Shown here piece by piece: positions 29,066 to 49,270 of a DNA stretch of 57,219 bases. The notes beneath the pieces were generated by a model. That model saw nothing but the letters and a program-made list of their open reading frames with translations, did not search any database and was not told the DNA's origin. Position 1 is the stretch's first letter, and every line of letters starts with the position of its first letter. The translations under genes were made by a program, and so were the position numbers. Origin of the DNA: Candidatus Nanohaloarchaea archaeon (GTDB lineage Archaea > Nanohalarchaeota > Nanosalinia > Nanosalinales > Nanosalinaceae); contig JBDGSE010000031.1 in the NCBI GenBank assembly GCA_042217695.1, positions 1-57,219 of the forward strand, given 5' to 3'.

Positions 29066-29661
29066 AAGTAGCGCTCGACCTGGAGGGAGTACTGTCAGAC
29101 ATACACACAGAGTTCCTGAAGGTTTACAACAGGAGACACGGGACTTCTTTCTCCCGGGAAGACATCGATGACTGGGTCTTTGGAACAGTCCGCGAACACT
29201 TCAACGAGACGCACGGCCTGGAACCCGGCAACACGCAGGGCTTCCTGAGAGGACACCACAGCTGGGAAGGTTTCTACGCGGTGTCAGAAAACATGTGGAG
29301 AGAGGACCACGATAGAATCCCCGCGCTTTTCGACTCTGTCCCCACTATTATGAGCGACGAAGAGTTCCAGGTGGACATCGTGACAGCCCGGAAACGTGTC
29401 AGGGAAAAACTGGAGCAGTGGCTGGAGTCGAAAGGCGTACAGAAGGGCCGTCACTTCGACCGGTTAAGGATAGAGAACGACAAGCACAGACTTGACTACG
29501 ATATCTTCATAGACGATAACCCCGCGTTACACCAGGAGTTGAAAGGGACGGAAAAACACGGGATAATGGTGGAGCAGCCCTGGAACCGTTCCACGGACTG
29601 CGGAACCACACGGGTAAAAAACGTTGAACAGGTTACGGAGGCGGTAAAGGATCTGGACTGA
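29062..29661 (+). CDS. HAD-superfamily 5'(3')-deoxyribonucleotidase-like protein
   Basis: Motif I ALDLEGVLSD (DxE instead of DxD) and motif IV IFIDDNP, as in the NT5C family. ATGA overlap with rfcS. Confidence 0.55.
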   Translation: MKVALDLEGVLSDIHTEFLKVYNRRHGTSFSREDIDDWVFGTVREHFNETHGLEPGNTQGFLRGHHSWEGFYAVSENMWREDHDRIPALFDSVPTIMSDEEFQVDIVTARKRVREKLEQWLESKGVQKGRHFDRLRIENDKHRLDYDIFIDDNPALHQELKGTEKHGIMVEQPWNRSTDCGTTRVKNVEQVTEAVKDLD

Positions 29662-30835
29662 GAAATACAGGCCGGAAAGCCTTGAAGAGTACCGGGGCGC
29701 TTCCAAACAAAAGGAAGAGCTGAAGAAATGGCTGGAGAACTGGGATCAGGGCGACGAACCTGTGCTGCTCCACGGCCAGGCAGGCACCGGGAAGACCTCT
29801 CTTGTAGAGGCGCTGGCGAACGAGTACGGCTACGAACTGGTGGAGACCAACGCCTCGGACGTGAGGACGAAAAAGAAGCTGAAGTCAGAGCTGAAGGAGG
29901 CGACCCGTCAGGCCTCGTTCTTCGGCACCGAGAAGATAATACTGATAGACGAGGTCGACGGTATGTCCGGCTCCGACCGGGGCGGCGTCGCCGAGTTGAG
30001 GGAGATAGTTGACGAATCCCGTTTCCCCGTCGTGATGACGGCAAACGACCCCTACGACTCCAGGATCAAATCACTGAGGAACCGGGCGAAGATGGTCAAG
30101 CTGGACTCGGTCCACACGAACTCTATCGCGGCCCATCTAAGACAGATACTCGACGCGGAAGGAATCGAGTACGAGGACGGCGCGATGAAACGTATCGCAA
30201 GGGCCTCCGGCGGGCAGATGCGGTCCGCGATAAACGACCTGGAGGCTGTCGCCCGGGGGAAGGACAGGGTGACCGTCGAAGATGTAAAGGTTCTCAGCCA
30301 GCGCGACAACCGCCAGGACATATTCGAGGCGTTAAAGATAGTTTTCAAGACCTCTACCGCCGAGACCGCGGACCAGGCCACGAACAACCTGGACGAGGAC
30401 GCCGACACCTTCCTGCAGTGGGTCCGGGAGAACGTTCCCAGGGAGTACAGGCGGATGGGCGACGTTTCAAGGGCGTACAACTGGGTTTCGAAGGCCGACC
30501 TGTTCAACGGCCGGCTCCGAAGGACACAGAACTGGAAGCTCCTGAAGTACGTCTACCTGTTCTCCACAGTCGGCGTGGCTTTAAGCAAGGAGGAGAAGTA
30601 CGAGGGCTGGACGAAGTACCAGTACCCGTCGAAGATAAGGAAGATGGGTTCCTCACGGGCCTCGAGAAGAACTTTCTCACAGATCGCCGACAAACTGGGC
30701 GAAAAACTACACATCTCCGGGAGGGAGTCAGCCCGCGAACTCCCGTTCCTGGCCCAGATAATGGACGATTACCCTGTACAGGAGGAACTGGAGCTGGAAG
30801 ACGACGAGACGGAATTCATCCGGAAATTTGTCTAG
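29651..30835 (+). CDS. rfcL: replication factor C large subunit (start codon unresolved)
   Basis: In-frame (I)WTEKYRPESLEEY...LLHGQAGTGKTS, IDEVDGM and TANDPYD. The first canonical start (GTG 29762) lies after the conserved box. A TAA at 29645-29647 bounds the frame, so I give ATC 29651 as the provisional start. Confidence 0.8.
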   Translation: MWTEKYRPESLEEYRGASKQKEELKKWLENWDQGDEPVLLHGQAGTGKTSLVEALANEYGYELVETNASDVRTKKKLKSELKEATRQASFFGTEKIILIDEVDGMSGSDRGGVAELREIVDESRFPVVMTANDPYDSRIKSLRNRAKMVKLDSVHTNSIAAHLRQILDAEGIEYEDGAMKRIARASGGQMRSAINDLEAVARGKDRVTVEDVKVLSQRDNRQDIFEALKIVFKTSTAETADQATNNLDEDADTFLQWVRENVPREYRRMGDVSRAYNWVSKADLFNGRLRRTQNWKLLKYVYLFSTVGVALSKEEKYEGWTKYQYPSKIRKMGSSRASRRTFSQIADKLGEKLHISGRESARELPFLAQIMDDYPVQEELELEDDETEFIRKFV

Positions 30836-31398
30836 GGCCTGTATTTCAGAGTGTAAATCTCTTTTACCCATGCGTGAGGGCTGCGGTCAACGGAGCCTTT
30901 ATACTCTTCAACGTAGGCTTCTCCCTGACTGAGAGCGGGCGAACCTATCAACAGGTAAGCGCTCCGGTACTTGAAGTCGGAGGCGCCGAAAACCGAACTT
31001 GAAGCGCCTATACCGTACATCGCTGATTCGAGACCGTTTGAGAGCCGGTGTGTCTGCGGCTCGTCCTGAGTGGTGACGAAAACAACTATATCGCCGTCCT
31101 CCGGAAGGTTATTCAGGTCGTTCGCCATCCTGCCGGCGGCCTCTATCCCGTCGACAGTTCCATCGTTGTCCGCATCGCCGGACTCGTAAACATCGTATGT
31201 CCGGTGCCACATCCACGACCCGGTCTCCTTGTTGAAGACAGAAACACCGTATGAACGGGTGCCGTCAAGCAACTGTGTCCTGCTGCTCCCCACGTAAGTC
31301 CCACCGTAGTCAGCGGGATCGCCGCTAGGCGGAAGCGGGGCGTTTCCACCCTCGGACTGTCTCGCATCGAATCCTATCGAGTACACCATCACCTCCAT
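30832..31398 (-). CDS. signal-less protein with ILEI/FAM3 (PANDER)-like pattern, last gene of the pilus locus
   Basis: 188 aa. GVSVFNKETGSWMWHRTYDVYESGD...LPEDGDIVVFVTTQDEPQTHRL...IGASSSVF...KYRSAYLLIGSPAL resembles remembered ILEI-domain hallmarks. In frame with the upstream ORF across TAG-GAA. Confidence 0.6.
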   Translation of the reverse strand: MEVMVYSIGFDARQSEGGNAPLPPSGDPADYGGTYVGSSRTQLLDGTRSYGVSVFNKETGSWMWHRTYDVYESGDADNDGTVDGIEAAGRMANDLNNLPEDGDIVVFVTTQDEPQTHRLSNGLESAMYGIGASSSVFGASDFKYRSAYLLIGSPALSQGEAYVEEYKGSVDRSPHAWVKEIYTLKYRP

Positions 31399-31401
31399 TT
31401 C

Positions 31402-31746
31402 CTAGGCAGGGGCTCCTACCTCCACGCAGGTCATGTGGAGTCGGACACCGGGCTTGGTCAGTGTCACGTTAAAGCAGTCTCTCTGGCCGGTACGGCTCCA
31501 GTACTTTGCCCTGCCCGTGTACTGGGTGAGGCTGTTCACCATCCGCTTGAAGTTCTCGATCTCCTTGTCCTGCTGGGCGGTGACTTTCTGTGCCTCCCGC
31601 TGGATACGGTTGATGTAGTACGCCTGGTCGTCCGGACTGTAACTCTTTGACTGGATCTGGCTGATGGTCGCCACGGTGCCTATCACCATCACGCTGACGA
31701 TCATCGCCGTCAAGACCATGAACTGTCCCTTCCTCAATTGCGCCAC
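31402..31746 (-). CDS. prepilin-like protein (class III signal)
   Basis: MAQLRKG|QFMVLTAMIVSVMVIGTVATI. Confidence 0.7.
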   Translation of the reverse strand: MAQLRKGQFMVLTAMIVSVMVIGTVATISQIQSKSYSPDDQAYYINRIQREAQKVTAQQDKEIENFKRMVNSLTQYTGRAKYWSRTGQRDCFNVTLTKPGVRLHMTCVEVGAPA

Positions 31747-33512
31747 CTCAGGTGCAGCTGGTACGGCATGTAGGTGATGTTTTTGATACTCCCCGCTATA
31801 CTGGTCGATATCGCCACCGGTTCGCCGCGGCCGCTGAAGGTCTTCTGGTCGCCCCGGAGCCAGTAAATGATTGAAGCCACCAGCCTCCGGTCTGCCTGGC
31901 TGTAACTTGGTTCGTAGGGAACCCTGGCGAGCCGGGTGCCGTCGAAGCCGGAGAACGTCGTCCGGAAGTTAACTACCTCAACCCTCTCCGCCCCGGCATA
32001 CACCATCTCGGCGCAGGTAAGTCCGTCGTCACACCCCGGCCTGGTGGGATAGGTTTTCAGGCGGTACCGGCGGCCTTCAACGGTGAACACCTCGCCGTTC
32101 AGGAAGGGGCCCTCGTCAATGTCCCCGTAGTCGCCGTCACCGTTCCTGTCGATGTTGATGCCGTAGTTCAGTTTGTTGCAGGCCGAGGCACTGGTCCCGA
32201 GGTGGGTGTTGACCATGTCGTATGTGCCTGTGGGGAAGCTGAAGCTCCCGGTCGCCCATTCACCGCAGTAAGTATCCGGCGCGCCCGGAGGCCGGGTATT
32301 CGTCGGGTTCATGTTCATGTTTGTCGCGTTCCATTCATCGGTGTCGTATCTTCCCGCAGGAGAGTATACCATTACCTCCCGGGTGGTGAACTGTGGTCCG
32401 GGACTGGAGCTTATCTTGGCGCCGGGCGAGAGAGTGACCGCCGAGTTATCGCCCTTCTGCCCAACGAAGTACGTCTCAACCTCGCTGGAGAGCGGTGTCT
32501 CGGTGAATGCTATCGATCCACCTGGCGGCGAGGAGTAGCCCAGATCCACCCATTTCAGGCCTGTGTCCGCGATAAACCCGGAGGTCACCTGTGACTGGGA
32601 CGGGTTCATCGCCAGCAGCACGGAGCCCTTCTCCATAAAGTTTTCAAGTTCTGTCCTGTGGTTCTGTATGTTGTCAAGCGACTGTGCTCTCCGGAACACC
32701 ACCAGGTCATAGACGGTTATATCTTTCCCGGAGAACCTGAACGTGTCGAAAGTTGTGTCGGTATCGACACCGTTCACTCCCTTCCTCATGGTCTCCCTCA
32801 TCCGGATCACCTGGTCGGCGCGGTAGACCGTGAACTGCCGGGCGTTGCCGTTGATGGACTTGAAATCGTAGAAATGGGTCTCGCCGGGACCTGTACTGTT
32901 GCCCCAGAAGAAGAAGTCGTGGAGGTAGTGGGGGCCTTCCGCGGCAGAGAACTGGCAAGCGGTACCGTTGTCGACCCATACACTGTCGTAGTTCACCGTG
33001 CCGTCGAATCCTCCGCCGCTGTGTTTTGGGTCGGTATCCGCGAAATAGAGTTTTACCTCGTGCAGATCGGTCAGGGTATCCGAGGAGGCCGTCCGGAGGA
33101 CAGGTGCCTCAGATTTACTCTTTATCTCCTCGAGGCCGCCCTCGCAGGAGCCGCCTGACATGCCGTAAAGGGGTTGTGTGAATCTTTTGTCGGGAAGCGT
33201 GTGGTATCCTATCTGGGTCTCCAGTATAGGCAGGTTTGAAACAGTGCCGGAGACCTTGAGCTCCCTGCTCGAGATAGCGACTACCGAGGTTCTCAGGGCA
33301 CCCGTGTCTCCTCTCTTCATGAAGCTGGAGAGATGGCCTGTTCTCTGGAGCGTGTAGCCCAGGTCATGGGCCGCTATCTGTCTCTGGTAATCCCTCCAGT
33401 CCTGGGCGGCAGAAGGTATCTGGAAGGCGGTGGCGGCGAAGGCCAGCAGGATGAACATGGCTGCTATAGCCTCTATCGAGTACCCTATCCCTTTCCGGTC
33501 GCTCAATCCCAT
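31734..33512 (-). CDS. large prepilin-like protein, candidate pilus-associated adhesin
   Basis: MGLSDRKG|IGYSIEAIAAMFILLAFAATAF. 592 aa. DRNGDGDYGDID calcium-loop-like motif at nt 32115-32150; 7 Cys. Confidence 0.7.
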   Translation of the reverse strand: MGLSDRKGIGYSIEAIAAMFILLAFAATAFQIPSAAQDWRDYQRQIAAHDLGYTLQRTGHLSSFMKRGDTGALRTSVVAISSRELKVSGTVSNLPILETQIGYHTLPDKRFTQPLYGMSGGSCEGGLEEIKSKSEAPVLRTASSDTLTDLHEVKLYFADTDPKHSGGGFDGTVNYDSVWVDNGTACQFSAAEGPHYLHDFFFWGNSTGPGETHFYDFKSINGNARQFTVYRADQVIRMRETMRKGVNGVDTDTTFDTFRFSGKDITVYDLVVFRRAQSLDNIQNHRTELENFMEKGSVLLAMNPSQSQVTSGFIADTGLKWVDLGYSSPPGGSIAFTETPLSSEVETYFVGQKGDNSAVTLSPGAKISSSPGPQFTTREVMVYSPAGRYDTDEWNATNMNMNPTNTRPPGAPDTYCGEWATGSFSFPTGTYDMVNTHLGTSASACNKLNYGINIDRNGDGDYGDIDEGPFLNGEVFTVEGRRYRLKTYPTRPGCDDGLTCAEMVYAGAERVEVVNFRTTFSGFDGTRLARVPYEPSYSQADRRLVASIIYWLRGDQKTFSGRGEPVAISTSIAGSIKNITYMPYQLHLRWRN

Positions 33513-34342
33513 GCTAGCACCTCTATCCTCAGCGGCTGGGGTGCCGACGCCGGCGCGCTGAGGGTGGCGTAACGGTTAAGCTTTATGACCCGGGCATTCC
33601 GGTCTATGGACCCTCCAAAGGTCTTGAGGTGTCGGGAAAGTATAACCGAGGTGCCCGACGTCCCGCCCTTGTTTTCGATGCGTGCTATGGTGAACTTTTT
33701 CCCCTCCAGGAAGACAGTGTCCCCCGGAGAATGCGGCTGACTGTAGAGGAAGTCCCAGTCCGCGGAATGGTAGAGGGTGTCGTAAACACCGTTGTGGGCC
33801 GTCACAAGGAACTTGTGAATAGAACCATAGATCCTCAGGGTTCCGTAATGAACCCTGTTCTCGGCTTTGCTGTATGACGCAGTATCAGGTTCTTCATCAA
33901 CAGGACCTGCAGGATTTCCCCGTATGAAACTTCCCGGCGTCTCCACTATCGGCATCCAGGTGAAGTTGAAACGATAGTTGTTTTCCACGCCCGTCACCTC
34001 CTTGAACTGGGTGTAGTTGAACTGGGCGACGCCGGTGGAGGAGAGGTTCTCGAGCTTGTCTTTCTCGACCACCAGATAGTCGGACGCTATCCCGAACTGT
34101 GTGACATGGCTTATAGTTCCCACGTTCCGCTCCCATTCGGTCCCGCCGGAGCCGTAGCTGTGGTACCCAGGGTTTGAAAGCATCATCTCCGTTACCGCCC
34201 TGGCCTCCAGGTTGAGGGATGCCACTTTCACGTCCTCCCGGAACTGTGGTATTTCGCCCGCCCCCATAGCTGCCACTCCGAGCACGGTAAGCAGGAAGAA
34301 TACCGCTGCCCCTATGTACTCGAGTGTGAACTGTCCTTTCAT
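33503..34342 (-). CDS. prepilin-like protein (class III signal, Glu at +5)
   Basis: MKG|QFTLEYIGAAVFFLLTVLGVAAMG. Confidence 0.7.
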   Translation of the reverse strand: MKGQFTLEYIGAAVFFLLTVLGVAAMGAGEIPQFREDVKVASLNLEARAVTEMMLSNPGYHSYGSGGTEWERNVGTISHVTQFGIASDYLVVEKDKLENLSSTGVAQFNYTQFKEVTGVENNYRFNFTWMPIVETPGSFIRGNPAGPVDEEPDTASYSKAENRVHYGTLRIYGSIHKFLVTAHNGVYDTLYHSADWDFLYSQPHSPGDTVFLEGKKFTIARIENKGGTSGTSVILSRHLKTFGGSIDRNARVIKLNRYATLSAPASAPQPLRIEVLAWD

Positions 34343-34343
34343 T

Positions 34344-35405
34344 CTATAACCCCGCGGGAGCCACCACGAACATGAAAGCGATGAAGGCCAGAGGAAGCAT
34401 CACAAGCGCGTGTTTTATACCGGCGCTGGGGCTTCCCTCGGCTACCTGGCCTGCAACCGCGGCAGTGGCCATGCCCTGTATCATCAGCATGCTGAACAGC
34501 AGGGACTTGTAGTACGCCATGTTGCCGTAGCCGTAGGTTTTTGAGTACTGTGAGCCAAAGGTGACGTTCGCCGGGACAAACCCGAAAATCCTGGCCGTGG
34601 TACAGAAAGGTCGGGAAGCGGCTATATCTCCGCCGCAGAACTGTGTCTGGCCTCCACCACCCTGGCCGATGACCTGGCCTATACTTGCCAGTGCACCGGG
34701 GTCCGAGCTGCCGAGTCCCAGGAGCTGGGCCAGCATGATGTAGATACCTATCGTGATGCCTATGAACAGGAAGTAGATGACGTACATGATGACCAGCTGC
34801 TGCTTGAGCTTGGCGTTCTTCTCCTGTATGACCTCGCGGAGCTGGCCGGCATCCTCCGCCACGGCCTCTATAGTCTGGGTTATGTTCCCTCCGCTCTCGA
34901 AGCTCTGGATGATAATAGACAGCGACTCCTGTATGACCGCCGAGTCCTCCATCCTCCTGGAGAAACGTCTCATGACCTCCGGGAACGGTATTCCCCAGGT
35001 GAGTTCACGGTAGACCTTCTCTATCTCGGGGTTGAGGCGTCCATAGTCTGTGTCCATGGAGGACTCGAACGCCCTCAGAATGGTCATACCTCCTCTCTTG
35101 GATTCCGCCAGGTCCTTCAGGAACACCGGGAACTGGTCCTCCATCTCACGTATGGCCCTGTTCTTCAGGAAGGAAAGGAGACCGTACGGCATTATCCCGA
35201 CAAGCAGCCCCAGTATAACCGTGAGTCCTCCGATCTGCTGGGAAACCCCGAGGTAGAGGAGTATCCCGACCAGGATGAGGACGGCGGCAACACCTATCGA
35301 ACCGAAGACCACCTTGTCCTCGAGCGGTCGGCCGGCCTGGTACTCTTCCTCCTTGAAGAAGTCCAGCTGGAACCTTCCTCCTCCGTCTTCCTCTTCGTCC
35401 GTCAC
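34344..35405 (-). CDS. type IV pilus platform protein, T2SSF-domain (TadC/EpdK-like)
   Basis: Polytopic 353-aa protein with a cytoplasmic helical T2SSF-like core (RLNPEIEKVYRELTWGIPFPEVMRRF). Confidence 0.75.
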   Translation of the reverse strand: MTDEEEDGGGRFQLDFFKEEEYQAGRPLEDKVVFGSIGVAAVLILVGILLYLGVSQQIGGLTVILGLLVGIMPYGLLSFLKNRAIREMEDQFPVFLKDLAESKRGGMTILRAFESSMDTDYGRLNPEIEKVYRELTWGIPFPEVMRRFSRRMEDSAVIQESLSIIIQSFESGGNITQTIEAVAEDAGQLREVIQEKNAKLKQQLVIMYVIYFLFIGITIGIYIMLAQLLGLGSSDPGALASIGQVIGQGGGGQTQFCGGDIAASRPFCTTARIFGFVPANVTFGSQYSKTYGYGNMAYYKSLLFSMLMIQGMATAAVAGQVAEGSPSAGIKHALVMLPLAFIAFMFVVAPAGL

Positions 35406-36274
35406 CGTATACCACCCGGCGATATCCCCTTTATCAGCAGTATAAACATCCCGGAGATTATGGGGAGTCCAAAGAATATGGCGACGGCCTGTACAGCCAC
35501 GATAGTCCCTGGATCAAAGTTGGCGAACGAGCTCATGACCGCGCTCATGGAAGTGAAGATGATCGAACCGACGATGACCACCGTGATGTACATCTCGACG
35601 ATGAGGGACAGGGAGTCAGAGAACTCCTCTACACGGCGCTGGTAGTCTGTCATCAGGGATGAGGCACGTTCCCTCAGGAACTCTCTCAGGGAACCTCCAG
35701 TGGTCAGCACATGGTTTATACCCCACACCAGTTCACGGAAGTCCTTGCTCGGCGTCCTCTCCGCAGCCCGCTCCATAGCCTTGCTGGAGTCCATCCCGAA
35801 TGTCTCGATGTCTCTATGGATTTTCTCAGCCTCCTTTGAGACCTCGCCGTACTCCTCCGTGTCGGCCAGGTTCCCGAATATCTCGGGTAGTGAGGTGCCT
35901 GTTCCAGCAAGCGTTGAGAGGTACATGGTGGCGAACGGCAGGGTGTCACGTATCTTGCTCGCCCTGTTCCTCACCATAAGCACCGGGTAGAGATAGAACC
36001 CCACGAAGGTGGCGGCGAGAGAGACTATGGACAGTACGAGCGCCAGCAGTATACCTGCGACCCCCATACCCATCACGAACATTATACCGAAGAACACGAA
36101 ACTCAGAAGAGACATTACTCCGGCGGAGAACACCATCATGCTGACGTATTCCGGCAACGAGATCTCCAGCCCGGACTTGGTCAGCTGCGGCCTCAGGTCC
36201 TCAAAGTACGGTACATAATCCAGTACATATGGACCTGCCTGGTCGAAACAGAACTCTGCGTACTCGTCAAGCAT
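35402..36274 (-). CDS. type IV pilus platform protein, T2SSF-domain (TadB/EpdJ-like)
   Basis: 290-aa protein with a T2SSF-like core (LPFATMYLSTLAGTGTSLPEIFGNLA...). 4-nt overlap with the next gene and 8-nt overlap with the ATPase gene. Confidence 0.75.
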   Translation of the reverse strand: MLDEYAEFCFDQAGPYVLDYVPYFEDLRPQLTKSGLEISLPEYVSMMVFSAGVMSLLSFVFFGIMFVMGMGVAGILLALVLSIVSLAATFVGFYLYPVLMVRNRASKIRDTLPFATMYLSTLAGTGTSLPEIFGNLADTEEYGEVSKEAEKIHRDIETFGMDSSKAMERAAERTPSKDFRELVWGINHVLTTGGSLREFLRERASSLMTDYQRRVEEFSDSLSLIVEMYITVVIVGSIIFTSMSAVMSSFANFDPGTIVAVQAVAIFFGLPIISGMFILLIKGISPGGIR

Positions 36275-37970
36275 TCTTAATATCTAGTTCGTCCGTCTCC
36301 GAATTAAATGTTTGCCCGATTCTCTCCATAACATCCTGCGGATTCGAGTAGTAACGGGCTATCCACTTGCCCACATCCCGGTAGTGCTTTATCTGCTGGT
36401 CCTGCATGTAGTTCAGAACGTGCTGGCGGTTCCGGACCTCGTTTTTGAGCTGTTCGTAGTCCATACCGCTCTGGTCCGCGATATCCTTCAGGATCAGCGA
36501 GTTGTTCTCAACTATGTACTCGTCGCTCTGCGGGTTCCACGAGAAGACCTTGTTCGCATCTATACCGGTTCTCTCGTCGTAGCCACGTATCTCGTAGATG
36601 CCGTTGATACGTCTCACATAGGTTCCCTCCCTCCGGATCCTGGAGATAAGCATCACGGCGTCCAGCGTCTCTATGAGAGATGGCGACAGGTTTATGGGTT
36701 CGGTCGTAAGGCGGTCCATGAGCATGTCAAGCGAGTCGGCGTGGATCGTCGAGAGCCCTGTGTGCCCCGTTGCCATCTGCTGGAACAGGATGTACGCCTC
36801 CTCACCACGGACCTCACCGACGATGATGTACTCCGGGCGCTGACGAAGGGATTCCTTGAGAAGGTTGTCCATCGATACTTCTCCGCCTTCCTCCGCGGAT
36901 GAACCGAAGCCTGAACGTGCGACCTCCGGTACCCAGTGCTCGTGCGGTAACCGGAGTTCCGGCGTGTCCTCGATGGATACGATCTTCTTGTCCGGTCGGA
37001 TGAAGAGGCTCATCGCGTTTAACTGCGAGGTCTTTCCCGCGCCTGTCGTTCCGGCGATAAGTATCGATTTACCGTGTTCGACCAGTGTCCAGAGGTAGGA
37101 GTACATCTGGGCGTTCTCGGTCTCGTAGTCCATCATGTGGATCGGCGTTAACGGGTCCTCCGTGAACCTTCGGATAGTAAAGTTCGAACCTTTCCGGGCG
37201 ATGTCTGTCGCGAGCGTGGCCTGTACACGGGAACCATCAGGCAGGGAGCCGTCGAGCAGCGGGTTTGAAACCGAGATGGAGCGACCGCAGCGCTGCGCCA
37301 GTTTCATCACGAAAGAGTCCAGTTCCTCGGGTTCGTCCCAGACTATATCGGTCTTTACGGAGCCGAACTTCGGGTTCCTGTGGTAAGCGTAGACAGGTAT
37401 GCCGGTCCCGTCACACGAGATGTCCTCGACCTCGGTATCGTTCATCAGCGGTTGCAGCTTTCCAAGCCCCGCAAAGTCTCTTTTTGTGTAGTAACGTATT
37501 ATCTCCCTCTGATCCTGTGTTATCGACAGCTGGTACTTGTCAACTATCTCGTCTATCTTTTCGTTGAGATAGTCCTCGGCCTCCTGGCTCTCCAGTTCCG
37601 TGAACTCTATATCGAAACTCCTCTCCATTATCTGTTTTATCCTGTCCAGTAGCTGCTGGGTCTCCTGATCCAGTTCCGGCTCTATAACCCGGTAGACGAG
37701 CTCTTCCTCTTCCTCGCTCCAGGTGATATGCGCCCATGCATACACGAGTTCGCCCTCATCCGGGTCCTCCGGCACAAGCGGGTAGGTAACGCTTACATCG
37801 GTCAGGTCTGCCTCCTCCTGACCCTCTTCGACCATACTGGAGCTGAACTCTCCAGGTACAGGCACCTCTATACCGGCCTGGTGTTCCTGCTCCTCTTCTT
37901 CCTCCTCGTACCATTCGGGGTGTCTCAGCCTCCGAAGCTTGTTTACCAGGTTGTGCATCTGGTGCGCCAT
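36267..37970 (-). CDS. type II/IV secretion-family ATPase (FlaI/GspE/TadA-like pilus assembly ATPase)
   Basis: Walker A ILIAGTTGAGKTS, Asp box VSIEDTPEL, Walker B EYIIVGEVRGEEAY, STIHADS His box. Confidence 0.9.
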   Translation of the reverse strand: MAHQMHNLVNKLRRLRHPEWYEEEEEEQEHQAGIEVPVPGEFSSSMVEEGQEEADLTDVSVTYPLVPEDPDEGELVYAWAHITWSEEEEELVYRVIEPELDQETQQLLDRIKQIMERSFDIEFTELESQEAEDYLNEKIDEIVDKYQLSITQDQREIIRYYTKRDFAGLGKLQPLMNDTEVEDISCDGTGIPVYAYHRNPKFGSVKTDIVWDEPEELDSFVMKLAQRCGRSISVSNPLLDGSLPDGSRVQATLATDIARKGSNFTIRRFTEDPLTPIHMMDYETENAQMYSYLWTLVEHGKSILIAGTTGAGKTSQLNAMSLFIRPDKKIVSIEDTPELRLPHEHWVPEVARSGFGSSAEEGGEVSMDNLLKESLRQRPEYIIVGEVRGEEAYILFQQMATGHTGLSTIHADSLDMLMDRLTTEPINLSPSLIETLDAVMLISRIRREGTYVRRINGIYEIRGYDERTGIDANKVFSWNPQSDEYIVENNSLILKDIADQSGMDYEQLKNEVRNRQHVLNYMQDQQIKHYRDVGKWIARYYSNPQDVMERIGQTFNSETDELDIKNA

Positions 37971-38390
37971 CTATCTATCCCTCAACAAGAATTTGTTCTT
38001 CCTTTTCAATACGTTTACGGTTCCACCATCGACAGAGCCGTCAAAACTGTAGGTCGAATCCAGGTAGTCGTAGCTGGTCCTGTACGTGTTCCCTCCGACG
38101 TATATCTTGAGCACACCGTCTTCCCAGGATACCTGGTAGCTCTGGCCTCCCACCCTTTCAGGCAGTTCCACGACTATAGACCCCGTGCTTTCCTGCTCCA
38201 TGGAGGCAAGCGAGTAGACCGCATCGTTGATCTTCGCCTGAACAGCCTCTACCTGTGCCTCCTCGGCTGTTTCAAGCGCACCCATCCTGAACTGGTTGAA
38301 CCCTGCTATAACTGCTATAGCGAGTAAAAGTCCGAGGCCGAACGAGAAAACTGTTTCGATCGCAAGGTACTGTCCTTTACGAGAGTTCAT
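37971..38390 (-). CDS. prepilin-like protein (class III signal)
   Basis: MNSRKG|QYLAIETVFSFGLGLLLAIAVIAGF. Its stop directly abuts the ATPase start. Confidence 0.7.
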   Translation of the reverse strand: MNSRKGQYLAIETVFSFGLGLLLAIAVIAGFNQFRMGALETAEEAQVEAVQAKINDAVYSLASMEQESTGSIVVELPERVGGQSYQVSWEDGVLKIYVGGNTYRTSYDYLDSTYSFDGSVDGGTVNVLKRKNKFLLRDR

Positions 38391-39067
38391 CTCAGGTCTA
38401 CCCTGATAACCGTTCTCTCACGGTTGATGAGTCTACCGGAGGGAAGCCGGATGCCGTTGGATCCCGTGTCACGACGGGTCCCAGCGTTCGTGATCCTGAG
38501 AGTGGTTGCCCCTGCCGCGGCAGTCCCTCCCTTGGCCTGCAGGTCTATCTTCTCAAGTTTTTTGCCGGATGCCGTGTTGACGTAAAGGTTCCTGAACTCC
38601 ACGCGGTAGGTGAGCTTTCCGGCGCTCGTCCCGTGCGGTTTTACCAGGACAACTCCCGGCAGGTCTTCTCCCTTGATACCGTATAGACCGGCGCCGATCG
38701 AGATGTTCTGCAGGCTGCTGCCCTTTACCATAGTCCAGGTGTTGGGCGGGTAGGGTGCGTTCGGCACCGAGGAAACCGTGATGTTGATGTAGTCCTGCGC
38801 CGGGTTGAGGAACACATACTCTATCCTGGCGTTCTGACTGGAGAAATCAAGTTGCACGCTGGCAGCGGTACCGCTTCCTCCCCTGCTCGTGGACACGACT
38901 GTATTATACAGGCCGATAACCTGCTCCTCCACCTGCTGTACGTTGGCCTGGCCCTGCCTCTTGGTAAGTATGGGCGTGCCCCAGACATAGACGCTTGCGA
39001 TGGCTCCTACAGTTATACCTGTTATCAGTACGGCGGTTACCGCCTGGGTCTGGCCCTTCCAGTCCAT
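38387..39067 (-). CDS. prepilin-like protein (class III signal)
   Basis: MDWKG|QTQAVTAVLITGITVGAIASVYVWG from ATG 39067. TTTAAAG (39092-39098) lies ~28 nt upstream. The track start at 39253 would overlap the pilin gene. Confidence 0.7.
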   Translation of the reverse strand: MDWKGQTQAVTAVLITGITVGAIASVYVWGTPILTKRQGQANVQQVEEQVIGLYNTVVSTSRGGSGTAASVQLDFSSQNARIEYVFLNPAQDYINITVSSVPNAPYPPNTWTMVKGSSLQNISIGAGLYGIKGEDLPGVVLVKPHGTSAGKLTYRVEFRNLYVNTASGKKLEKIDLQAKGGTAAAGATTLRITNAGTRRDTGSNGIRLPSGRLINRERTVIRVDLR

Positions 39068-39091
39068 ATAATCATCAGACTCACGCTGGAA

Positions 39092-39098
39092 TTTAAAG
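39092..39098 (-). promoter_or_regulatory. internal TATA-like element for the downstream pilus-assembly genes
   Basis: TTTAAAG ~28 nt upstream of ATG 39067. Confidence 0.4.
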
Positions 39099-39115
39099 TA
39101 ACCGGCTGAAGAGGT

Positions 39116-39132
39116 AAGAAAGAGAAAAAAGA
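39116..39132 (-). terminator. poly-T tract after the pilin genes
   Basis: Minus strand TCTTTTTTCTCTTTCTT just downstream of the pilin 2 stop (39142). Confidence 0.45.
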
Positions 39133-39141
39133 TATGTATTT

Positions 39142-39660
39142 TTAGCAGCTGAAAGCGCCTGCCGTCTGCGTGGTGCAGTGGTACCTGAACTCCTTGTCCG
39201 CACCCTTCATCGAAACCACTAGGTACATGTCGATGGGTTTCTGACTTGGCCACTTTAGCCCTGTGCTACAGTCCTGCGAGTTCTTGGGAGGTACCAGTAC
39301 GGAAGTGCCGGAAGCGAAACAGGTCGATGTACCGCTGGTCTGGAACTGAGTGTTGGCAGCGAATACTGAGGCGCTGACAGGCGAACCTCCTCTGGTCTTG
39401 GCGAACCCGAGTTCGAAGTTGGACGTGTTAAGCGTCCTGGAGTTCGGGTTCCTCCAGGTCAGGCGCATGTTGCCCCCTTCGTTGTACACAGACTGGAAGC
39501 TCAGCTGCGTGTTGATCGCCTGCTGCTGACTCTGGGCCTGACCACCGAACTGAAGGACTCCCTGGAACTGTGTCCAGACGATTCCTATCATTCCGAGGGT
39601 GATCAGGATCAACAGGACGATCGCGATTACAGGTGTGATACCCTTACGTGACTTGAACAT
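39142..39660 (-). CDS. archaeal type IV pilin (Pilin_N-type), candidate major pilin 2
   Basis: MFKSRKG|ITPVIAIVLLILITLGMIGIV. Has its own TATA plus GGTGA ribosome-binding site. Ends in C-x9-C-COOH. Confidence 0.8.
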   Translation of the reverse strand: MFKSRKGITPVIAIVLLILITLGMIGIVWTQFQGVLQFGGQAQSQQQAINTQLSFQSVYNEGGNMRLTWRNPNSRTLNTSNFELGFAKTRGGSPVSASVFAANTQFQTSGTSTCFASGTSVLVPPKNSQDCSTGLKWPSQKPIDMYLVVSMKGADKEFRYHCTTQTAGAFSC

Positions 39661-39700
39661 CTAGATTTTCACCTTATGCATCGAATGTTTCTAGGCGCTC

Positions 39701-39713
39701 CTTTAAATAATTT
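39701..39713 (-). promoter_or_regulatory. TATA-like promoter plus GGTGA ribosome-binding site for pilin 2
   Basis: Minus strand AAATTATTTAAAG ~47 nt upstream of ATG 39660. GGTGA (39669-39673) lies 8 nt upstream. Confidence 0.45.
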
Positions 39714-39721
39714 CTACCGGT

Positions 39722-40216
39722 CTAACAGGCAGTATCGCCCGAAGAATCCTTATCGCAGACTATAGCCGAAACAGTCTTGTACTGGCCCCGTATCTCCACT
39801 GTCTTGGACCCTCCCACCGTTGAAGGATAGTTCGTGCCGGTATCCAGAGTTATGGTCTCTCCAGGGTTCACGAGGACATCTGCGCTGGAACCACCAGGTA
39901 CGCCCCATCCAGAGGCAGGCCGGCTATCGATGTAGAGGTTCCACAGCTTGTCGCCGTTCTCCTTGAACATGAGTGAGACACTTCCCTCGTTCTTTACCAC
40001 GATGTATATATTGCCGTTGGACTGTGACCTGAATCCCTGTATGATGGTGAGCTCGGATTTCTGCTGTTTCTGCTGTACACCGAGCTGTTCCGCGATACTC
40101 TGCCGGATATCTCCTCCGACGTCGCTGATAAAGACTGCGGAAGAAGCCACTGCAGCCATACTTATAGCGATAAGCATTACCGTGGCTACTACAGGAGTTA
40201 CCCCTTTCCTATTCAT
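39722..40216 (-). CDS. archaeal type IV pilin (Pilin_N-type), candidate major pilin 1
   Basis: MNRKG|VTPVVATVMLIAISMAAVASSAV. Ends in C-x9-C-COOH, and these are its only two Cys. Confidence 0.8.
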   Translation of the reverse strand: MNRKGVTPVVATVMLIAISMAAVASSAVFISDVGGDIRQSIAEQLGVQQKQQKSELTIIQGFRSQSNGNIYIVVKNEGSVSLMFKENGDKLWNLYIDSRPASGWGVPGGSSADVLVNPGETITLDTGTNYPSTVGGSKTVEIRGQYKTVSAIVCDKDSSGDTAC

Positions 40217-40847
40217 CGTTCCCGGAATCGAAGCGCTCCTTCAGTTTTCTTACCCGGTCGGCACCGCTCTCAGAGTTTAGACTCCTGCCGCTGCCCTGTC
40301 TTCCCTCGCTCTCCCGGGACTGCCGGGATTGCCGGGACTGCTGAGACTGTCCGGAGACCTGCATCCCACCGGTATCCTGGGACGCGTATGCCTTTCTCAG
40401 GCTGTCGTTTATGTTCTGAAGGTGTTCTATAACTTCCTCGTTGGATTCCTGGATGTCGCTCGCGACATCATCCATCCTGTTGCCGATGGCATCCGCGATA
40501 CGGCCTTCCATGTCTCCCACGACTTCGCCCTCCATGTCGACCTCGGAGGCCTCCGTGAGAAGGTCCATGAAGTCGTTCATGTTGTCCACGACCTCGTCCA
40601 TCTTGTGGGTGAGGTCTTCAACAGAGTTCTTCAGTTCATGCGTGGACTCGGTCATGTCGTTGACAATCCGCTGGTTCGACTTCATTATCTCCAGCACGTC
40701 ACGTATTATCTCCTCGTCCGGACCCCCGCTCTGGGCCTGCTGCTCGATGTTATCTATTCTCTTTTCAAGCTTTCTGACCGGTCCCAGAGGCACGACTTCG
40801 TAGTCCTCGGATTCGCCGTTCCCGAGTTCGACTTCTTTGTCTGACAT
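40209..40847 (-). CDS. acidic coiled-coil protein with Q/S/R repeat tail, first gene of the pilus locus
   Basis: 212-aa ORF. AAGGAG lies ~10 nt upstream of the ATG, with TATA-like ATTATAAATA further upstream. 8-nt overlap with pilin 1. Confidence 0.65.
   Translation of the reverse strand: MSDKEVELGNGESEDYEVVPLGPVRKLEKRIDNIEQQAQSGGPDEEIIRDVLEIMKSNQRIVNDMTESTHELKNSVEDLTHKMDEVVDNMNDFMDLLTEASEVDMEGEVVGDMEGRIADAIGNRMDDVASDIQESNEEVIEHLQNINDSLRKAYASQDTGGMQVSGQSQQSRQSRQSRESEGRQGSGRSLNSESGADRVRKLKERFDSGNDE
40315..40350. repeat. 4 x 9-bp coding tandem repeat
   Basis: gggactgcc gggattgcc gggactgct gagactgtc, encoding QSQQSRQSRQSRE. Confidence 0.8.
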
Positions 40848-40887
40848 AACTAGAACACTCCTTACACCACAGAATTCCCTTCACCAG

Positions 40888-40897
40888 TATTTATAAT
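40888..40897 (-). promoter_or_regulatory. TATA-like promoter of the pilus locus
   Basis: Minus strand ATTATAAATA ~46 nt upstream of ATG 40847, with AAGGAG in the predicted ~20-nt leader. Confidence 0.45.
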
Positions 40898-41115
40898 GTG
40901 GGGAAAGCGCCGGCATCTCAGGCCTATCACCTGCCTGGCCGGGGAAAAACCGCGGACATATAAGAATACGCGCCGATTTGATCTCCCTGGGAAGGGAAAG
41001 ATTAGAACCGGGCACAGTTGTGAGAGTGTGTTCCGGGGTTGCGGTGGTTTTCCTCGCGGAAAGCCCTCCGGCCTTCCCACTACTTTTTACATTAGAATAG
41101 TGTTCGAGAACTTCT

Positions 41116-41145
41116 GGGAAAAATTATAGAAGAAAAGAGACGGGA
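41116..41145 (-). terminator. poly-T tracts after the thermosome gene
   Basis: Minus strand CCCGTCTCTTTTCTTCTATAATTTTTCCC. Confidence 0.45.
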
Positions 41146-41160
41146 AGATGTAGGACGGGC

Positions 41161-42834
41161 CTACATCATTCCTCCCATGCCACCCATTCCGCCGCCGGGC
41201 ATGCCTCCGCCGCCAGACGGTGGCTGTTCGCCTCCACCGGATTCATCGGAGTCGAACCCGGACGCGGAGATAACGTCGTCTATCCGCAGGATCATCTCCG
41301 CTGATTCCGAGGCGGAGGAAACGGCCTGGGTCTTTATCTGGAGCGGTTCCACAACTCCCTGGTCGAACAGTCTCTCCGACTTTCCGGAGGTGACGTCGAT
41401 TCCGGACCAGACCTCGCCCTCGTCGTGCTTGTTTCTCAGGTCGACGAGTGTGTCTATCGGGTCGAAGCCGGCGTTCTCGGCCAGCGTCCGGGGGATGACC
41501 TCCAGGGATTCGGCGAAGGCGTTGATGGCCAGCTGTTCTCTTCCACCGACAGAGTCGGCGTATGTCCTCAGGCGTTTCGCGAGTTCTACCTCGGTGGCGC
41601 CTCCACCGCCGACGACTTTGCCGTTCTTCAGGGCGGATGCGACGCCGCCGATGGCGTCCTCCATCGCTCTCTCGATTTCGTCTACAACATGCTCCGTGCC
41701 GCCCCGGATCAGGATGGAGACGGACTTGGCTTCGGGGCAGTCCTGGACAAAGGTCATGGCGTCGCCGCCGATCCTTCTCTGTTCAACGGTTCCGGCGTCT
41801 CCCAGGTCTTCCTCCTCGATATCCTCTATCGAGGTGACTATGTTGGCGCCGGTCGCATTCGAGAGTTTCTCGATTTCTCCGGAGGAAACCCTGCGTACGG
41901 CGAAGATGCCTTTCTTGGCCATGTAATGCTGGGCGATGTCGTCTATACCTTTCTGGCAGAGCACCACGTCAGCGCCCGCCTCGTCCAGCTGTTCCACCAT
42001 CTCCTTCAGCTGTCCTTCCTCTTCTTCGACAAAGCTTCTCAGCTGGTCGGGGTCGGAGATGTTGATCTCGGCGTCAGTCTCTGTCTCCTTTACCTCGACC
42101 GGGGTGTTCAGTAGTGCGATATTGGCGTCCTCAACCCGGGAAGGCATGCCTTTGTGGGTCTTCTCCTTGTCCAGTATCACGCCCTGGACAAGTTCCGTGT
42201 CTTCCACGGTACCTCCCTGTCTTTTCTCGACCTTCACCATGTCACGGTCGATGACCACTTCATCGTTTTCCTCCTCTGCGACCTGTCTGGCGGCGTCAAC
42301 CGCGATCTCTGCCAGGTAGTCGCGGGCGGTTTCCGCGCTTTTACCAGTCATTGCGGTCATGGCTACCTTTTCGAGCGTGTCATCGTCTTCAAGCCCCACA
42401 TCTTCGGATATCTCGTGGAGGACTTCCGAACTCTTCTCTCTTGCAAGCCTGTATCCCCGGGTGATAACGGTCGGGTGTATCTCCTGGTCCAGAAGGCCTT
42501 CAGCCTGTTTCAGGAGTTCGCCTGCCAGGACTACAGCGGTGGTTGTTCCGTCACCGACCTCTTCCTCCTGTGTCTGCGCTACCTCGACCATCATCTTGGC
42601 CGCGGGATGTTCGAGGTCCATTTCCTCGAGGATGGTCACTCCGTCGTTGGTCACGACTATATCGCCGACAGAGTCGACCATCATCTTGTCCATCCCTTTC
42701 GGACCGAGAGTGGTCCTCACCGCTTTTGAAACGGTTTTGCAGGCGTTGATATTGTTTTCCTGTGCGTCTTCGCCGGAGGTGCGTTCAGTGTCCTCCGACA
42801 TCACGAAAATCGGTTGTCCTCCAAATCCTACCAT
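41161..42834 (-). CDS. ths: thermosome subunit (group II chaperonin)
   Basis: [52 protein letters not shown] and a GGM-repeat C-terminus. Confidence 0.95.
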
Positions 42835-44820: not shown

Positions 44821-45095
44821 AACCGTCCCCCTCCTTCCAGTACCTCGTTGATCTCCATATCATCGTTCTGCAGCACCTCTACCGCCTCCTTTACCGCCCG
44901 GACGTATTCGGGCCGGGCCTCGAACTCTATCACGTTTTCCTTCCGGTTATACGGGGATCCATCCAGTTCGTACTGTTCCAGCACCTGTTCCGCGGTCTCG
45001 AGCACTTCATCCGCCACTCTCCGGCTCGAGAACTCGAAATACGGTTTTCTGGCAAGCCCTGCCTCTATCTGGAACCCGTACTCACTTGCGGACAA
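44817..45095 (-). CDS. hypothetical acidic protein inside the gatD-gatE operon
   Basis: 92 aa. TTG start with GAGGTGA 6 nt upstream. ATGA overlap with gatE. Confidence 0.55.
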   Translation of the reverse strand: MSASEYGFQIEAGLARKPYFEFSSRRVADEVLETAEQVLEQYELDGSPYNRKENVIEFEARPEYVRAVKEAVEVLQNDDMEINEVLEGGGRL

Positions 45096-45609
45096 TATCC
45101 TTCACCTCTTCCTCCAGCTCGTTAGTTGAACCTGAATCGTTTTCTATCATGTGGTCGCTGAGCGCAAGCAGGTCTCCGACTCCCTGTTTCAGCTCCCGTA
45201 AATCGCGGTCCCGGAGCCCTGTCTCGCGGTCCTCCTCACGCTGGCGCTCCTGTTTCCTTCTCTTTCTCGTCTCCCGCGAGGCCCAGACCCCTATTATCTC
45301 GATGTCTTTTTCGAGTTCGCGTTCAAACAGTTCTTTCTCGTGACGGCTCCTCATACCGGTTATCACCACCCTGTCCTTTTCGTCCACAACTTCCCGGAGA
45401 TAGGGGGTCGAGAGCCGGGCTATGGCGTCCATACCGTGTTCATCCCGGAGCGAGGACACGAAATCGCCCGCAGAGTCAAGCCCCCGTTTATCCATCTCGA
45501 TGCGCACCACGTCGCCCATGTCAAGCATCGTGAAACCCTCTTCCTTCATAACCTCTGCCACGGTGGTCTTCCCCGCGAGAGGCATACCTGTGACGCCGTA
45601 TATCTCCAT
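45082..45609 (-). CDS. P-loop nucleotide kinase-like protein (archaeal UPF0200-like, as I recall the family)
   Basis: MEIYGVTGMPLAGKTTVAE P-loop, MGDVVR, VVITGMRS and a basic/acidic C-terminal helix. Confidence 0.65.
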   Translation of the reverse strand: MEIYGVTGMPLAGKTTVAEVMKEEGFTMLDMGDVVRIEMDKRGLDSAGDFVSSLRDEHGMDAIARLSTPYLREVVDEKDRVVITGMRSRHEKELFERELEKDIEIIGVWASRETRKRRKQERQREEDRETGLRDRDLRELKQGVGDLLALSDHMIENDSGSTNELEEEVKDIVRK

Positions 45610-48730: not shown

Positions 48731-49270
48731 GTGGAAGAAGAACTCCTCCCCTCGGTGCATACAGGGTCCAGGCTGGACCAGGAAGAACTTCTCGAGACAG
48801 GTCGGAGAGCACGTCTCGCCGCGGCGAACTTCCTCGAGGAGGTGGAAGACTACCGGTTCCTCTTCAGGGAATGGAGAAGGGAGCGAGACGGGAAAATAAG
48901 ACGGGAAGCTCTCAACAAGGCATATAACGAGCTTCCAGAAGCGCTCTCCGAGCTTAACCCTCTGCTGGAGGAAGGCAGGCAACTACAGAAGGAACTCCGG
49001 AAAGAAGGTATAAATGGCGACCCAGGCCTGTTCAACGACTACAGCGGGGAACCGGTAGCCTTCAGAAGCGACGAGATACTGGTCGGCGACGAGATACGTC
49101 AGGAATACCGGCGCATGATGGCCGATACGGAGGAGCTGTACCGGGAAGCCCTTAACGAGCTCCACAACGTGGACTCGGAGTTCTACGATGAACTCGGAGA
49201 GACCCACTCCGGGGCCACTGTCATGGAATACCTGCCCCTCGAGTACGAGCCCAGGAGCTCATTCAGGTAG
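48731..49270 (+). CDS. hypothetical acidic helical protein
   Basis: 179-aa ORF with a GTG start and no earlier ATG. Convergent 12-nt overlap with the next gene. Confidence 0.5.
   Translation: MEEELLPSVHTGSRLDQEELLETGRRARLAAANFLEEVEDYRFLFREWRRERDGKIRREALNKAYNELPEALSELNPLLEEGRQLQKELRKEGINGDPGLFNDYSGEPVAFRSDEILVGDEIRQEYRRMMADTEELYREALNELHNVDSEFYDELGETHSGATVMEYLPLEYEPRSSFR

Follow-up and report, generated by a model that had tools for sequence, protein, structure and literature searches.

Two conserved loci that resemble type IV pilus loci and encode coiled-coil proteins (CCPs) have been described in cluster-2 DPANN archaea (Hamm et al., 2024; PMC11291902). In one of these, Locus 1, the genes for a CCP, FlaF, PilA, CpaF and TadC lie beside those for GroEL, GatE and an NTP hydrolase, and several of the encoded proteins have been detected by proteomics in Ca. 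Nanohaloarchaeum antarcticus. Xie et al. (2022; PMC9563170) reported Tad-like clusters in Nanohaloarchaeota whose architecture is identical to that in Undinarchaeota, noting "no pilins annotated", and La Cono et al. reported long filaments on Ca. Nanohalobium that were called archaella or pili-like. Here we analyze a locus of this type in a nanohaloarchaeal contig (JBDGSE010000031.1, assembly GCA_042217695.1), which we refer to over its full length of 57,219 nucleotides (nt) as the window. The locus comprises twelve genes, designated g01 to g12, and we consider it to be the conserved adhesive type IV pilus machinery of the Nanohaloarchaeota, corresponding to Locus 1 of cluster-2 DPANN, with a probability of about 0.8. 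For nanohaloarchaea, as for other DPANN archaea, growth depends on attachment to a host cell, and host recognition is the question on which this locus bears.

As Locus 1 is set out in Hamm et al. (2024), its coiled-coil gene beside pilus genes and its thermosome, GatE and small P-loop NTPase neighbors are all present here, as is its spread, with the same flanking genes, over Nanohalo-, Aenigmat- and Undinarchaeota. Nothing essential differs from that description, the window holding another genome's copy, and on this comparison the locus is Locus 1, a type already described. The supplementary datasets of Hamm et al. (2024) carry no further annotation of the locus, and the supplementary files of Makarova et al. 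(2016) include no nanohaloarchaeal genomes.

Gene content and conservation of the locus

The twelve open reading frames (ORFs) are tightly packed and all lie on the minus strand, from 40847 down to 30832. Only two spacers separate them, of 61 nt (g02/g03) and 74 nt (g03/g04); at the remaining junctions the ORFs overlap by 4-13 nt or abut. From the 5' end, the features are as follows.

g01, 40209-40847, minus strand: acidic 212-aa coiled-coil protein, corresponding to the CCP of Hamm et al.; generic coiled-coil Pfam matches only
g02, 39722-40216, minus strand: Pilin_N-type pilin, 164 aa, MNRKG/VTPVVATV...; its family profile was compared with solved pilins
g03, 39142-39660, minus strand: Pilin_N-type pilin, 172 aa, MFKSRKG/ITPVIAIVLL...; candidate major pilin
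g03/g04 intergenic region, 39068-39141, minus strand: oligo-T run, then a TATA-like TTTAAAT about 31 nt 5' of the g04 ATG
g04, 38387-39067, minus strand: minor pilin-like protein, 226 aa, MDWKG/QTQAVTAV..., DUF7289
g05, 37971-38390, minus strand: minor pilin-like protein, 139 aa, MNSRKG/QYLAIE..., DUF7266
g06, 36267-37970, minus strand: assembly ATPase, 567 aa, T2SSE and C-terminal PilB3_C
g07, 35402-36274, minus strand: platform protein, N-terminal half (T2SSF), 290 aa
g08, 34344-35405, minus strand: platform protein, C-terminal half (T2SSF), 353 aa
g09, 33503-34342, minus strand: minor pilin-like protein, 279 aa, MKG/QFTLEY...
g10, 31734-33512, minus strand: large multidomain minor pilin-like protein, 592 aa, ...RKG/IGYSIE...; candidate tip or adhesin component
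g11, 31402-31746, minus strand: small (114-aa) minor pilin-like protein with a GTG start codon, MAQLRKG/QFMVLTAM...
In-frame TAG and one codon (GAA) between g11 and g12, 31399-31404, minus strand; also listed for locus L084
g12, 30832-31398, minus strand: ILEI/PANDER-type domain, 188 aa, with an insert resembling a DxDxDG calcium loop

An earlier note on this DNA, made from the sequence alone, had described twelve minus-strand genes with gaps of these two sizes, a FlaI/GspE-family ATPase with two separate T2SSF platform proteins, seven proteins with class III signals and no recognizable A24 prepilin peptidase in the window, and had read them as a Tad/Epd-like archaeal pilus and candidate attachment apparatus. 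The coordinates and gaps were reproduced, Pfam and NCBIfam agree on the ATPase and platform proteins, and the seven N-termini had been quoted correctly. When all six frames of the window were scanned for M-x(0-12)-[KR]-[GAS] followed by a hydrophobic stretch, six of these seven N-termini were recovered, and the single other match was in a DUF192 protein (49259-49732); g11 was missed because its start codon is GTG. The g04 ORF is extendable to a GTG at 39253, the ATG at 39067 being favored by its orthologs. No A24 prepilin peptidase was found in the window either, among the five ORFs with multiple transmembrane (TM) segments that were inspected: three are VTT, MscS and Na/H exchanger proteins, and the two without a family have no GxGD motif.

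The conservation of the locus was determined by tblastn of all twelve proteins against 80 loci retrieved with the ATPase (individual loci are cited by L numbers). ATPase relatives with 67-84% identity are almost exclusively from Nanohaloarchaeota genomes, which makes the source of the window a nanohaloarchaeon distinct from every species representative in the genome collection. In addition, g01 to g11 have the same order and strand in essentially every nanohaloarchaeal locus that is long enough, representing about 40 Nanohaloarchaeota genomes. The nanohaloarchaeal cluster is bounded by the thermosome gene and gatE on one side and by genes for two replication factor C (RFC) subunits on the other; the neighbors in the window include thermosome (41161-42834), GatE (42916-44820) and an AAA_17/18 protein (45082-45609). 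A smaller core, with ATPase identity of about 50%, is present in metagenome-assembled genomes (MAGs) of Aenigmatarchaeota and Undinarchaeota and consists of g01, g04, g05, the ATPase, both platform halves and often a g03-type pilin, together with the thermosome neighbor. The strong co-conservation of the genes in related genomes, on which the earlier note had staked its proposal, thus leaves that proposal standing. As a separate observation, the position of the thermosome gene, directly upstream of the genes for the coiled-coil protein and the pilus, is shared by MAGs of Aenigmatarchaeota and of other DPANN lineages (L044-L078), an adjacency of unusually deep conservation whose functional reason is not obvious.

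The class III N-termini are also kept within each family: [RS]KG[VIL]TPV in g02, RKGITPVIA in g03, MKGQTQAVTAV in g04, KGQYLAVE in g05, KGQxxxEF in g09, RKGxGYxIE in g10 and KGQFMxIS in g11. Because this conservation holds across ortholog sets from about 40 Nanohaloarchaeota loci, these N-termini are not a product of chance. A conserved Glu is present at +5 in g09 and at +6 in g05 and g10.

The presence of the ATPase, the split platform and a g04/g05-like core in Undinarchaeota and QJJ-9 (L041, L043, L051) also bears on the proposal, made for Undinarchaeota and Nucleotidisoterales clusters, that such a pilus serves mainly for DNA or nutrient uptake in a competence-like manner. DNA import by pili has been suggested for Undinarchaeota/QJJ-9-type lineages (PMC9563170), and nanohaloarchaea are described in the literature as having no nucleotide biosynthesis. 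Nevertheless, we consider this improbable as the main role of the locus in the window, as the domains added in particular lineages (described below) are of lectin type and so suggest binding to glycans, the locus has no second (retraction) ATPase, and inspection of ORFs in the locus and the window brought no gene for a DNA-binding or ComEA/ComEC-like protein to notice. Uptake and adhesion are compatible with each other, and an adhesive pilus is the reading that we retain.

Assembly motor, main pilins and transcription signals

The g06 ATPase matches T2SSE with 111 bits and PilB3_C (PF23989) with 34.2 bits, above the gathering cut-off of 27, and its Walker A (GTTGAGKTS), Walker B (IIVGEVRGEE) and His box (TGHTG...HA) motifs are intact in alignments. 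Both g07 and g08 match T2SSF (64 and 63 bits, respectively). In the 555-position ArlJ model, g07 aligns to positions 6-248 and g08 to positions 262-462; as the two proteins cover the first and second halves of ArlJ, the platform is split, an arrangement shared with Tad and Epd systems and with many of the euryarchaeal Clade 2.

The best NCBIfam models for this motor are archaellar ones, ArlJ for g07 and g08 and FlaI (NF058587) for g06, which raises the question of whether the locus encodes a reduced archaellum. In such a system g02 and g03 would be archaellins or ArlF/G-like proteins, g06 ArlI, g07 and g08 a split ArlJ and g01 an ArlX-like protein, and the filament would serve the swimming of detached cells; the "long archaella" reported on Ca. 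Nanohalobium would fit with it. The FlaI score of g06, however, is 405 bits, below the cut-off of 550. Calibration of the FlaI model with reference sequences recovered from PDB alignments gave 651 bits for the true FlaI of S. acidocaldarius, 430 bits for the non-archaellar afGspE of A. fulgidus, 419 bits for an aenigmatarchaeal homolog and 405 bits for a Nanosalina homolog, placing g06 at the level of afGspE. Similarly, the closest solved protein to g06 in a phmmer search of the PDB is afGspE (380 bits), followed by FlaI (267 bits) and CpaF (140 bits).

The phylogeny of the ATPases points in the same direction. In a neighbor-joining (NJ) tree of 22 taxa with CpaF as the outgroup and 300 bootstraps, the DPANN ATPases were monophyletic in 99% of bootstraps; a grouping with afGspE that left FlaI outside was recovered in 86%, as compared with 4% for a grouping with FlaI. 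In addition, archaella all have ArlH, ArlF, ArlG and ArlC/D/E (Makarova et al., 2016), and there is no KaiC- or ArlH-like gene in the window, where the Walker-A proteins are a helicase, a kinase-like AAA_17 protein of 175 aa and the two subunits of RFC. The matches of g02 to ArlF and ArlG (E of about 1e-3; 19 and 17 bits, cut-off 110) and of g01 to ArlX/FlaX (16 bits, cut-off 225) are weak and far below the respective cut-offs.

A combined profile of the g02/g03 family, for which the family scan had 71 members, has as its best solved match the "flagellar-like" pilus subunit of P. calidifontis (8FK7, E 2.4e-11), and it also matches Iho670, Natrinema PilA2, an Hfx. volcanii pilin and the soluble domains of FlaG/FlaF. 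Weak matches to Pilin_N were found in 40 of the 71 members and to Arch_flagellin in 23, the latter being, with the P. calidifontis match, further points that an archaellum would explain. For the window pilins themselves there was no Arch_flagellin (PF01917) match at E<=0.1; they are 164-172 aa long with Pilin_N-type N-termini and both end in a conserved C-x9-C pair. Since an archaellum would also have no counterpart for the five further pilin-like genes or for the lectin-type heads, we consider it very improbable here. The archaellum reading is thus largely excluded and the locus is, as far as sequence comparison can tell, that of a pilus, in agreement with the earlier note, which had cited the missing KaiC-like gene and the N-termini of the pilins. 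The label matters, since the best scores of the ATPase and platform on FlaI and ArlJ models mean that automated annotation can mislabel these genes.

Of the two pilins, g03 has the most invariant N-terminus, RKGITPVIA being almost without exception, and its gene is duplicated in several genomes. It is preceded by a promoter-like TATA box (TTATTTAAA) and followed by a T-run (TTTTTTCTCTTTCTT). Among 36 orthologous g03/g04 spacers, a TATA-like box lies at -45 to -20 in 31, mostly at -30/-31, and a run of five or more T residues is present in 21. The region 39068-39141 probably serves both to terminate transcription of g03 and to start that of g04-g12, as a leaderless transcript. Based on the TATA-like boxes, the T-run, the invariant N-terminus and the duplication, we infer that there are at least three transcription units (g01-g02, g03 and g04-g12) and that g03 is likely the major pilin. 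Upstream of these units, the 313-nt spacer between the thermosome gene and g01 (40848-41160) has no credible ORF and no Rfam match; a TATA-like TTATAAATA and a GGAG lie in it, at distances of about 45 nt and 12 nt, respectively, upstream of the start of g01.

The g01 gene overlaps g02 by 8 nt, and its product has an N-terminal motif, DDYEVVPxGPIRKLEKR, that in the generalized form [DE][YF]E[VIL][VI]PxxP[IVL][RK][RK][LM]E[KR]R is kept across three DPANN phyla. As it has neither a signal peptide nor a TM segment, g01 is presumably cytoplasmic, and we expect it to be a partner of the motor, either a scaffold or a regulator, rather than a secreted fiber. A comparable role could be that of the intracellular coiled-coil protein noted in a halobacterial system by Makarova et al. 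(2016). An ArlX/FlaX-like identity was considered for g01 and rejected; Pfam searches with its orthologs give only generic coiled-coil noise.

Minor pilin-like proteins, lectin-type heads and other features of the window

The earlier note had left most of the proteins with class III signals without a nameable family. For g04 and g05 this can be amended, as DUF7289 is matched by 33 of 44 g04 orthologs (best E 3.4e-9) and DUF7266 by 36 of 40 g05 orthologs (best E 1.1e-8); with regard to their function the statement stands. It also stands for g09 and g10. Neither has a Pfam family, a scan of all g10 orthologs producing only three single-member weak matches, and profile searches against PDB sequences returned nothing significant for g04, g05, g09 or g10. 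All of the sequence relatives found for g09 (28) and g10 (37) are unnamed or "hypothetical", and those with an organism name are from Nanohaloarchaea.

The structure predictions that the earlier note had called for gave confident models of g09 and g10. The AlphaFold2 model of g09 (predicted local distance difference test score 90.3) has the design of a pilin, a long N-terminal helix and a beta-rich head. That of g10 (83.5, with a predicted TM-score of 0.80) has an N-terminal helix followed by several domains, and the protein carries four conserved Cys. Foldseek searches of the g09 model against the PDB, and of the g10 model against the PDB and the BFVD viral library, found no neighbor at E<1e-3. 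The two proteins therefore represent structurally orphan families, with confident models that have no solved neighbor (g09, g10) and no viral-library neighbor (g10). GH42, IFT52-N and glutamine-amidotransferase-like folds were considered for the central alpha/beta domain of g10, and the Foldseek hints to them are too weak to use. A profile search of 1.84e9 representatives yielded 142 relatives of g10; nine distant ones were scanned, four of which are proteins of 1040-2058 aa with Laminin_G_3 lectin domains preceding the g10 core. The g10 homologs in L004, L015 and L037 have an insertion of about 250 aa.

The last ORF, g12, had been described as a signal-less 188-aa protein to which no function could be assigned. 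An ORF without a signal is indeed present; the product, however, is not a separate component and its identity can be assigned, as it matches the Pfam domain ILEI (PF15711) with 33.8 bits (gathering cut-off, 27) over positions 5-86 of the 90 in the profile. Moreover, g12 is in the reading frame of g11, parted from it only by a TAG and one codon, and in L002, L003 and L039 a g11-type protein and ILEI form a single ORF. There is no stop at the position of the split in L002, L039, P0205 and P0206, and the fused ILEI homologs score 35.7 and 35.9 bits. Only six relatives of g12 were found in 5.8e9 proteins, and all but the window's own product are fused to a pilin: two to a g11-type N-domain and three to a g02-type Pilin_N domain. 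Judged by these homologs, g12 is the detached C-terminal head of a pilin and not an independent component of the locus.

The three g02-type fusions are the closest to g12 (57-58% identity) and have a DxDxDG loop in common with it. In g12 this EF-hand/DxDxDG-like loop, DADNDGTVDG, is inserted in the ILEI domain at residues 71-84 and may be a calcium site; the corresponding sequence in the closest three fusions is DADGDGTEDG, and the loop is absent from the g11-type fusions.

The TAG itself is probably not an assembly artifact, because the same bases are present in a Logan contig from run SRR28304477 that was made with a different assembler, although, being from the same run, this is not an independent biological confirmation. 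An exact-sequence look-up of g12 found no record other than a 184-aa call from the same sequencing run. The TAG may reflect a nonsense mutation or a polymorphism, or may mark a site of read-through. In the nearest genome (73% identity in g09/g10) g11 is without any head.

Heads of other kinds are carried by homologs of the downstream pilin-like proteins. The g09 homolog in L035 (13635-15077) has an additional, inserted Laminin_G_3 lectin domain (59 bits), and g11 homologs in L020 (14380-15303), L032 (11589-12524) and L038 (16183-17121) have about 200 extra C-terminal residues with no family, for which ConA-like heads were suspected; BLASTP of the extension in L038 against the ConA-like g09 homolog of L035 revealed no similarity. 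In L085 (540-4287; Logan SRR27869037_630047), whose taxonomy we infer from its pilin N-termini, there are three tandem g02-type Pilin_N pilins with different C-terminal heads: one intelectin/fibrinogen-like (XEEL, E 4.3e-9), one glycine-rich and one ILEI. These arrangements suggest that lectin-type heads are mounted on the downstream pilin-like proteins as their scaffolds, which would fit adhesion to host glycans. The variable part of the system is thereby located in the three pilin-like genes at the downstream end, which, with the lectin-type heads that they carry, are the candidates for host-glycan binding. A more far-reaching and tentative idea, which we think is more doubtful than probable, is that the pilus is a display rack on which interchangeable lectin heads of the ILEI, ConA-like and intelectin/fibrinogen-like kinds, borne by g02-, g09- and g11-type scaffolds, set the recognition of haloarchaeal host glycans, with the TAG between g11 and g12 as an on/off or read-through switch and not simple decay.

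A pseudopilus or bindosome-like system that inserts or anchors surface proteins with no long filament is very unlikely. In its favor, BasE and BasF are second-best or lower-ranking NCBIfam models for g06 and g07 (209 and 45 bits), and most of the class III proteins carry large non-pilin heads. However, the scores on the Bas models fall far short of their cut-offs (1000 and 1300), and the vicinity holds no substrate-binding protein with a class III signal. The two small Pilin_N pilins, in turn, have the traits of a polymerizing shaft subunit: N-termini that hardly vary, a promoter of their own and gene duplication.

Several other features of the window were recorded. The window proteome is strongly acidic, and Rfam and tRNA scans of the window had no match. 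The minus-strand gene at 4085-9385 encodes a possible large surface protease of 1766 aa. Its hydrophobic N-terminal segment may be a signal peptide; it also has an I9 propeptide, a subtilase domain (Peptidase_S8, 224 bits) and an Ig-like domain, after which come about 1200 residues without a family. On the minus strand at 17740-21638, two neighboring genes encode BatA/von Willebrand-A-type membrane proteins with DUF7406, DUF7407 and DUF7408, and just downstream of this pair are two V4R-domain proteins (16498-17674). On the plus strand, at 29648-29764, the large subunit of RFC has its conserved N-terminal sequence (IWTEKYRPESLEE...) encoded in frame 5' of the first ATG, GTG or TTG and right after a stop; translation probably starts at a non-canonical codon, the ATC at 29651, which lies in an overlap with the end of NT5C.

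Proposed mechanism and comparison with known systems

In the mechanism that we propose for the adhesive pilus, the cytoplasmic hexameric secretion ATPase g06 would drive a membrane platform made of the two half-size T2SSF proteins g07 and g08, the equivalent of a split ArlJ/TadC. A prepilin peptidase encoded elsewhere would cleave the [KR]G class III signals, upon which the platform would pull the cleaved pilins out of the membrane and polymerize them. The filament shaft is expected to be composed of g03 and probably also g02, both small Pilin_N pilins with a C-terminal disulfide pair, of which g03 would be separately transcribed. The pilin-like g04 and g05, which are conserved across DPANN phyla, would be low-abundance subunits and are likely priming or core minor pilins. 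In contrast, g09, g10 and g11 are specific to Nanohaloarchaeota and have large heads that appear to gain lectin-type domains (ILEI, ConA-like) by lineage; these heads are the probable adhesive or tip module, which would bind glycans on the host surface. The ILEI head g12 would have been severed from g11 by the TAG in the window strain, and g01 would be the cytoplasmic coiled-coil partner of the motor. The central proposal of the earlier note, a Tad/Epd-like archaeal pilus as the candidate attachment apparatus, is supported by our analyses with regard to the pilus, with attachment as its probable use.

Several points weigh against this interpretation. The FlaI model is still the best one for the ATPase, Arch_flagellin matches occur, weakly, among the pilin relatives, and the best solved match of the pilins is termed "flagellar-like". 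The window pilins score poorly on the Pilin_N model itself, g03 reaching 17 bits as compared with a gathering cut-off of 25.2 and g02 having no match. The reference sequences in the ATPase tree are one FlaI and one euryarchaeal pilus ATPase, so that FlaI is excluded with good though not conclusive support, and the filaments of cultured Ca. Nanohalobium were termed archaella by their authors (La Cono et al.). As the window has no prepilin peptidase, cleavage of the class III signals is predicted only. The ILEI head in the window has no signal and, as encoded, could not reach the surface. Finally, in Hamm et al. (2024) the CCP is likened structurally to the viral attachment fiber sigma-1, a fiber-like view that differs from our cytoplasmic reading of g01. 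We nevertheless retain an adhesive pilus as the best account of the locus, which is the most conserved surface-filament system of these archaea and, as such, an obvious experimental target.

The closest known systems outside DPANN include euryarchaeal ones. The PilB3-PilC3/PilA adhesion pilus system of Hfx. volcanii resembles the locus in that PilB3_C is present on the window ATPase and the pilin profile matches Hfx. volcanii and Natrinema pilins. It differs in that the PilB3 locus contains no pilins, whereas in the window pilins are encoded in cis, accompanied by a coiled-coil gene and five additional genes for pilin-like proteins. A pair of tadC-like genes is common among the euryarchaeal Clade 2 systems (Makarova et al., 2016), and the closest solved ATPase to that of the window, afGspE, was sister to the DPANN ATPases in our 22-taxon NJ tree, which had no PilB1-4 sequences.

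Compared by architecture alone, the Clade 1 Epd system of M. maripaludis (EpdJ/EpdK/EpdL) likewise combines one ATPase, two platform genes and many pilin-like genes in a single locus. Substrates of EppA typically have Gln as the first residue (+1) of the cleaved protein, as do four of the seven class III proteins here (g04, g05, g09 and g11). Unlike the Epd system, however, the window shows no EppA-type peptidase and no DUF361-type pilin was detected in it. The bacterial Tad/Flp systems share a VirB11-family ATPase and two half-size platform proteins with the locus, consistent with CpaF as the third-best PDB match of g06. They are set apart by the TadA equivalog score of g06 (TIGR03819, 164 bits, cut-off 373), by pilins that are archaeal Pilin_N rather than Flp, with no match to the Flp family, and by the lack of secretin and TadZ/RcpA-type genes in the window. 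The archaellum has a homologous motor core, as reflected in the best-scoring models for the ATPase and platform, and differs from the locus by its unsplit platform, by a FlaI score that g06 does not attain, and by ArlH, ArlCDE/X, true ArlF/G and subunits of archaellin length, which the locus does not have.

Locus 1 is therefore the described system to which the window is compared most directly. To its description in the consulted sections of Hamm et al. (2024), our analysis adds families for g04 and g05, the three downstream pilin-like genes specific to Nanohaloarchaeota, and the fusions of pilins with lectin-type domains together with the g11/g12 split. The published picture of the locus is thus refined and not changed.

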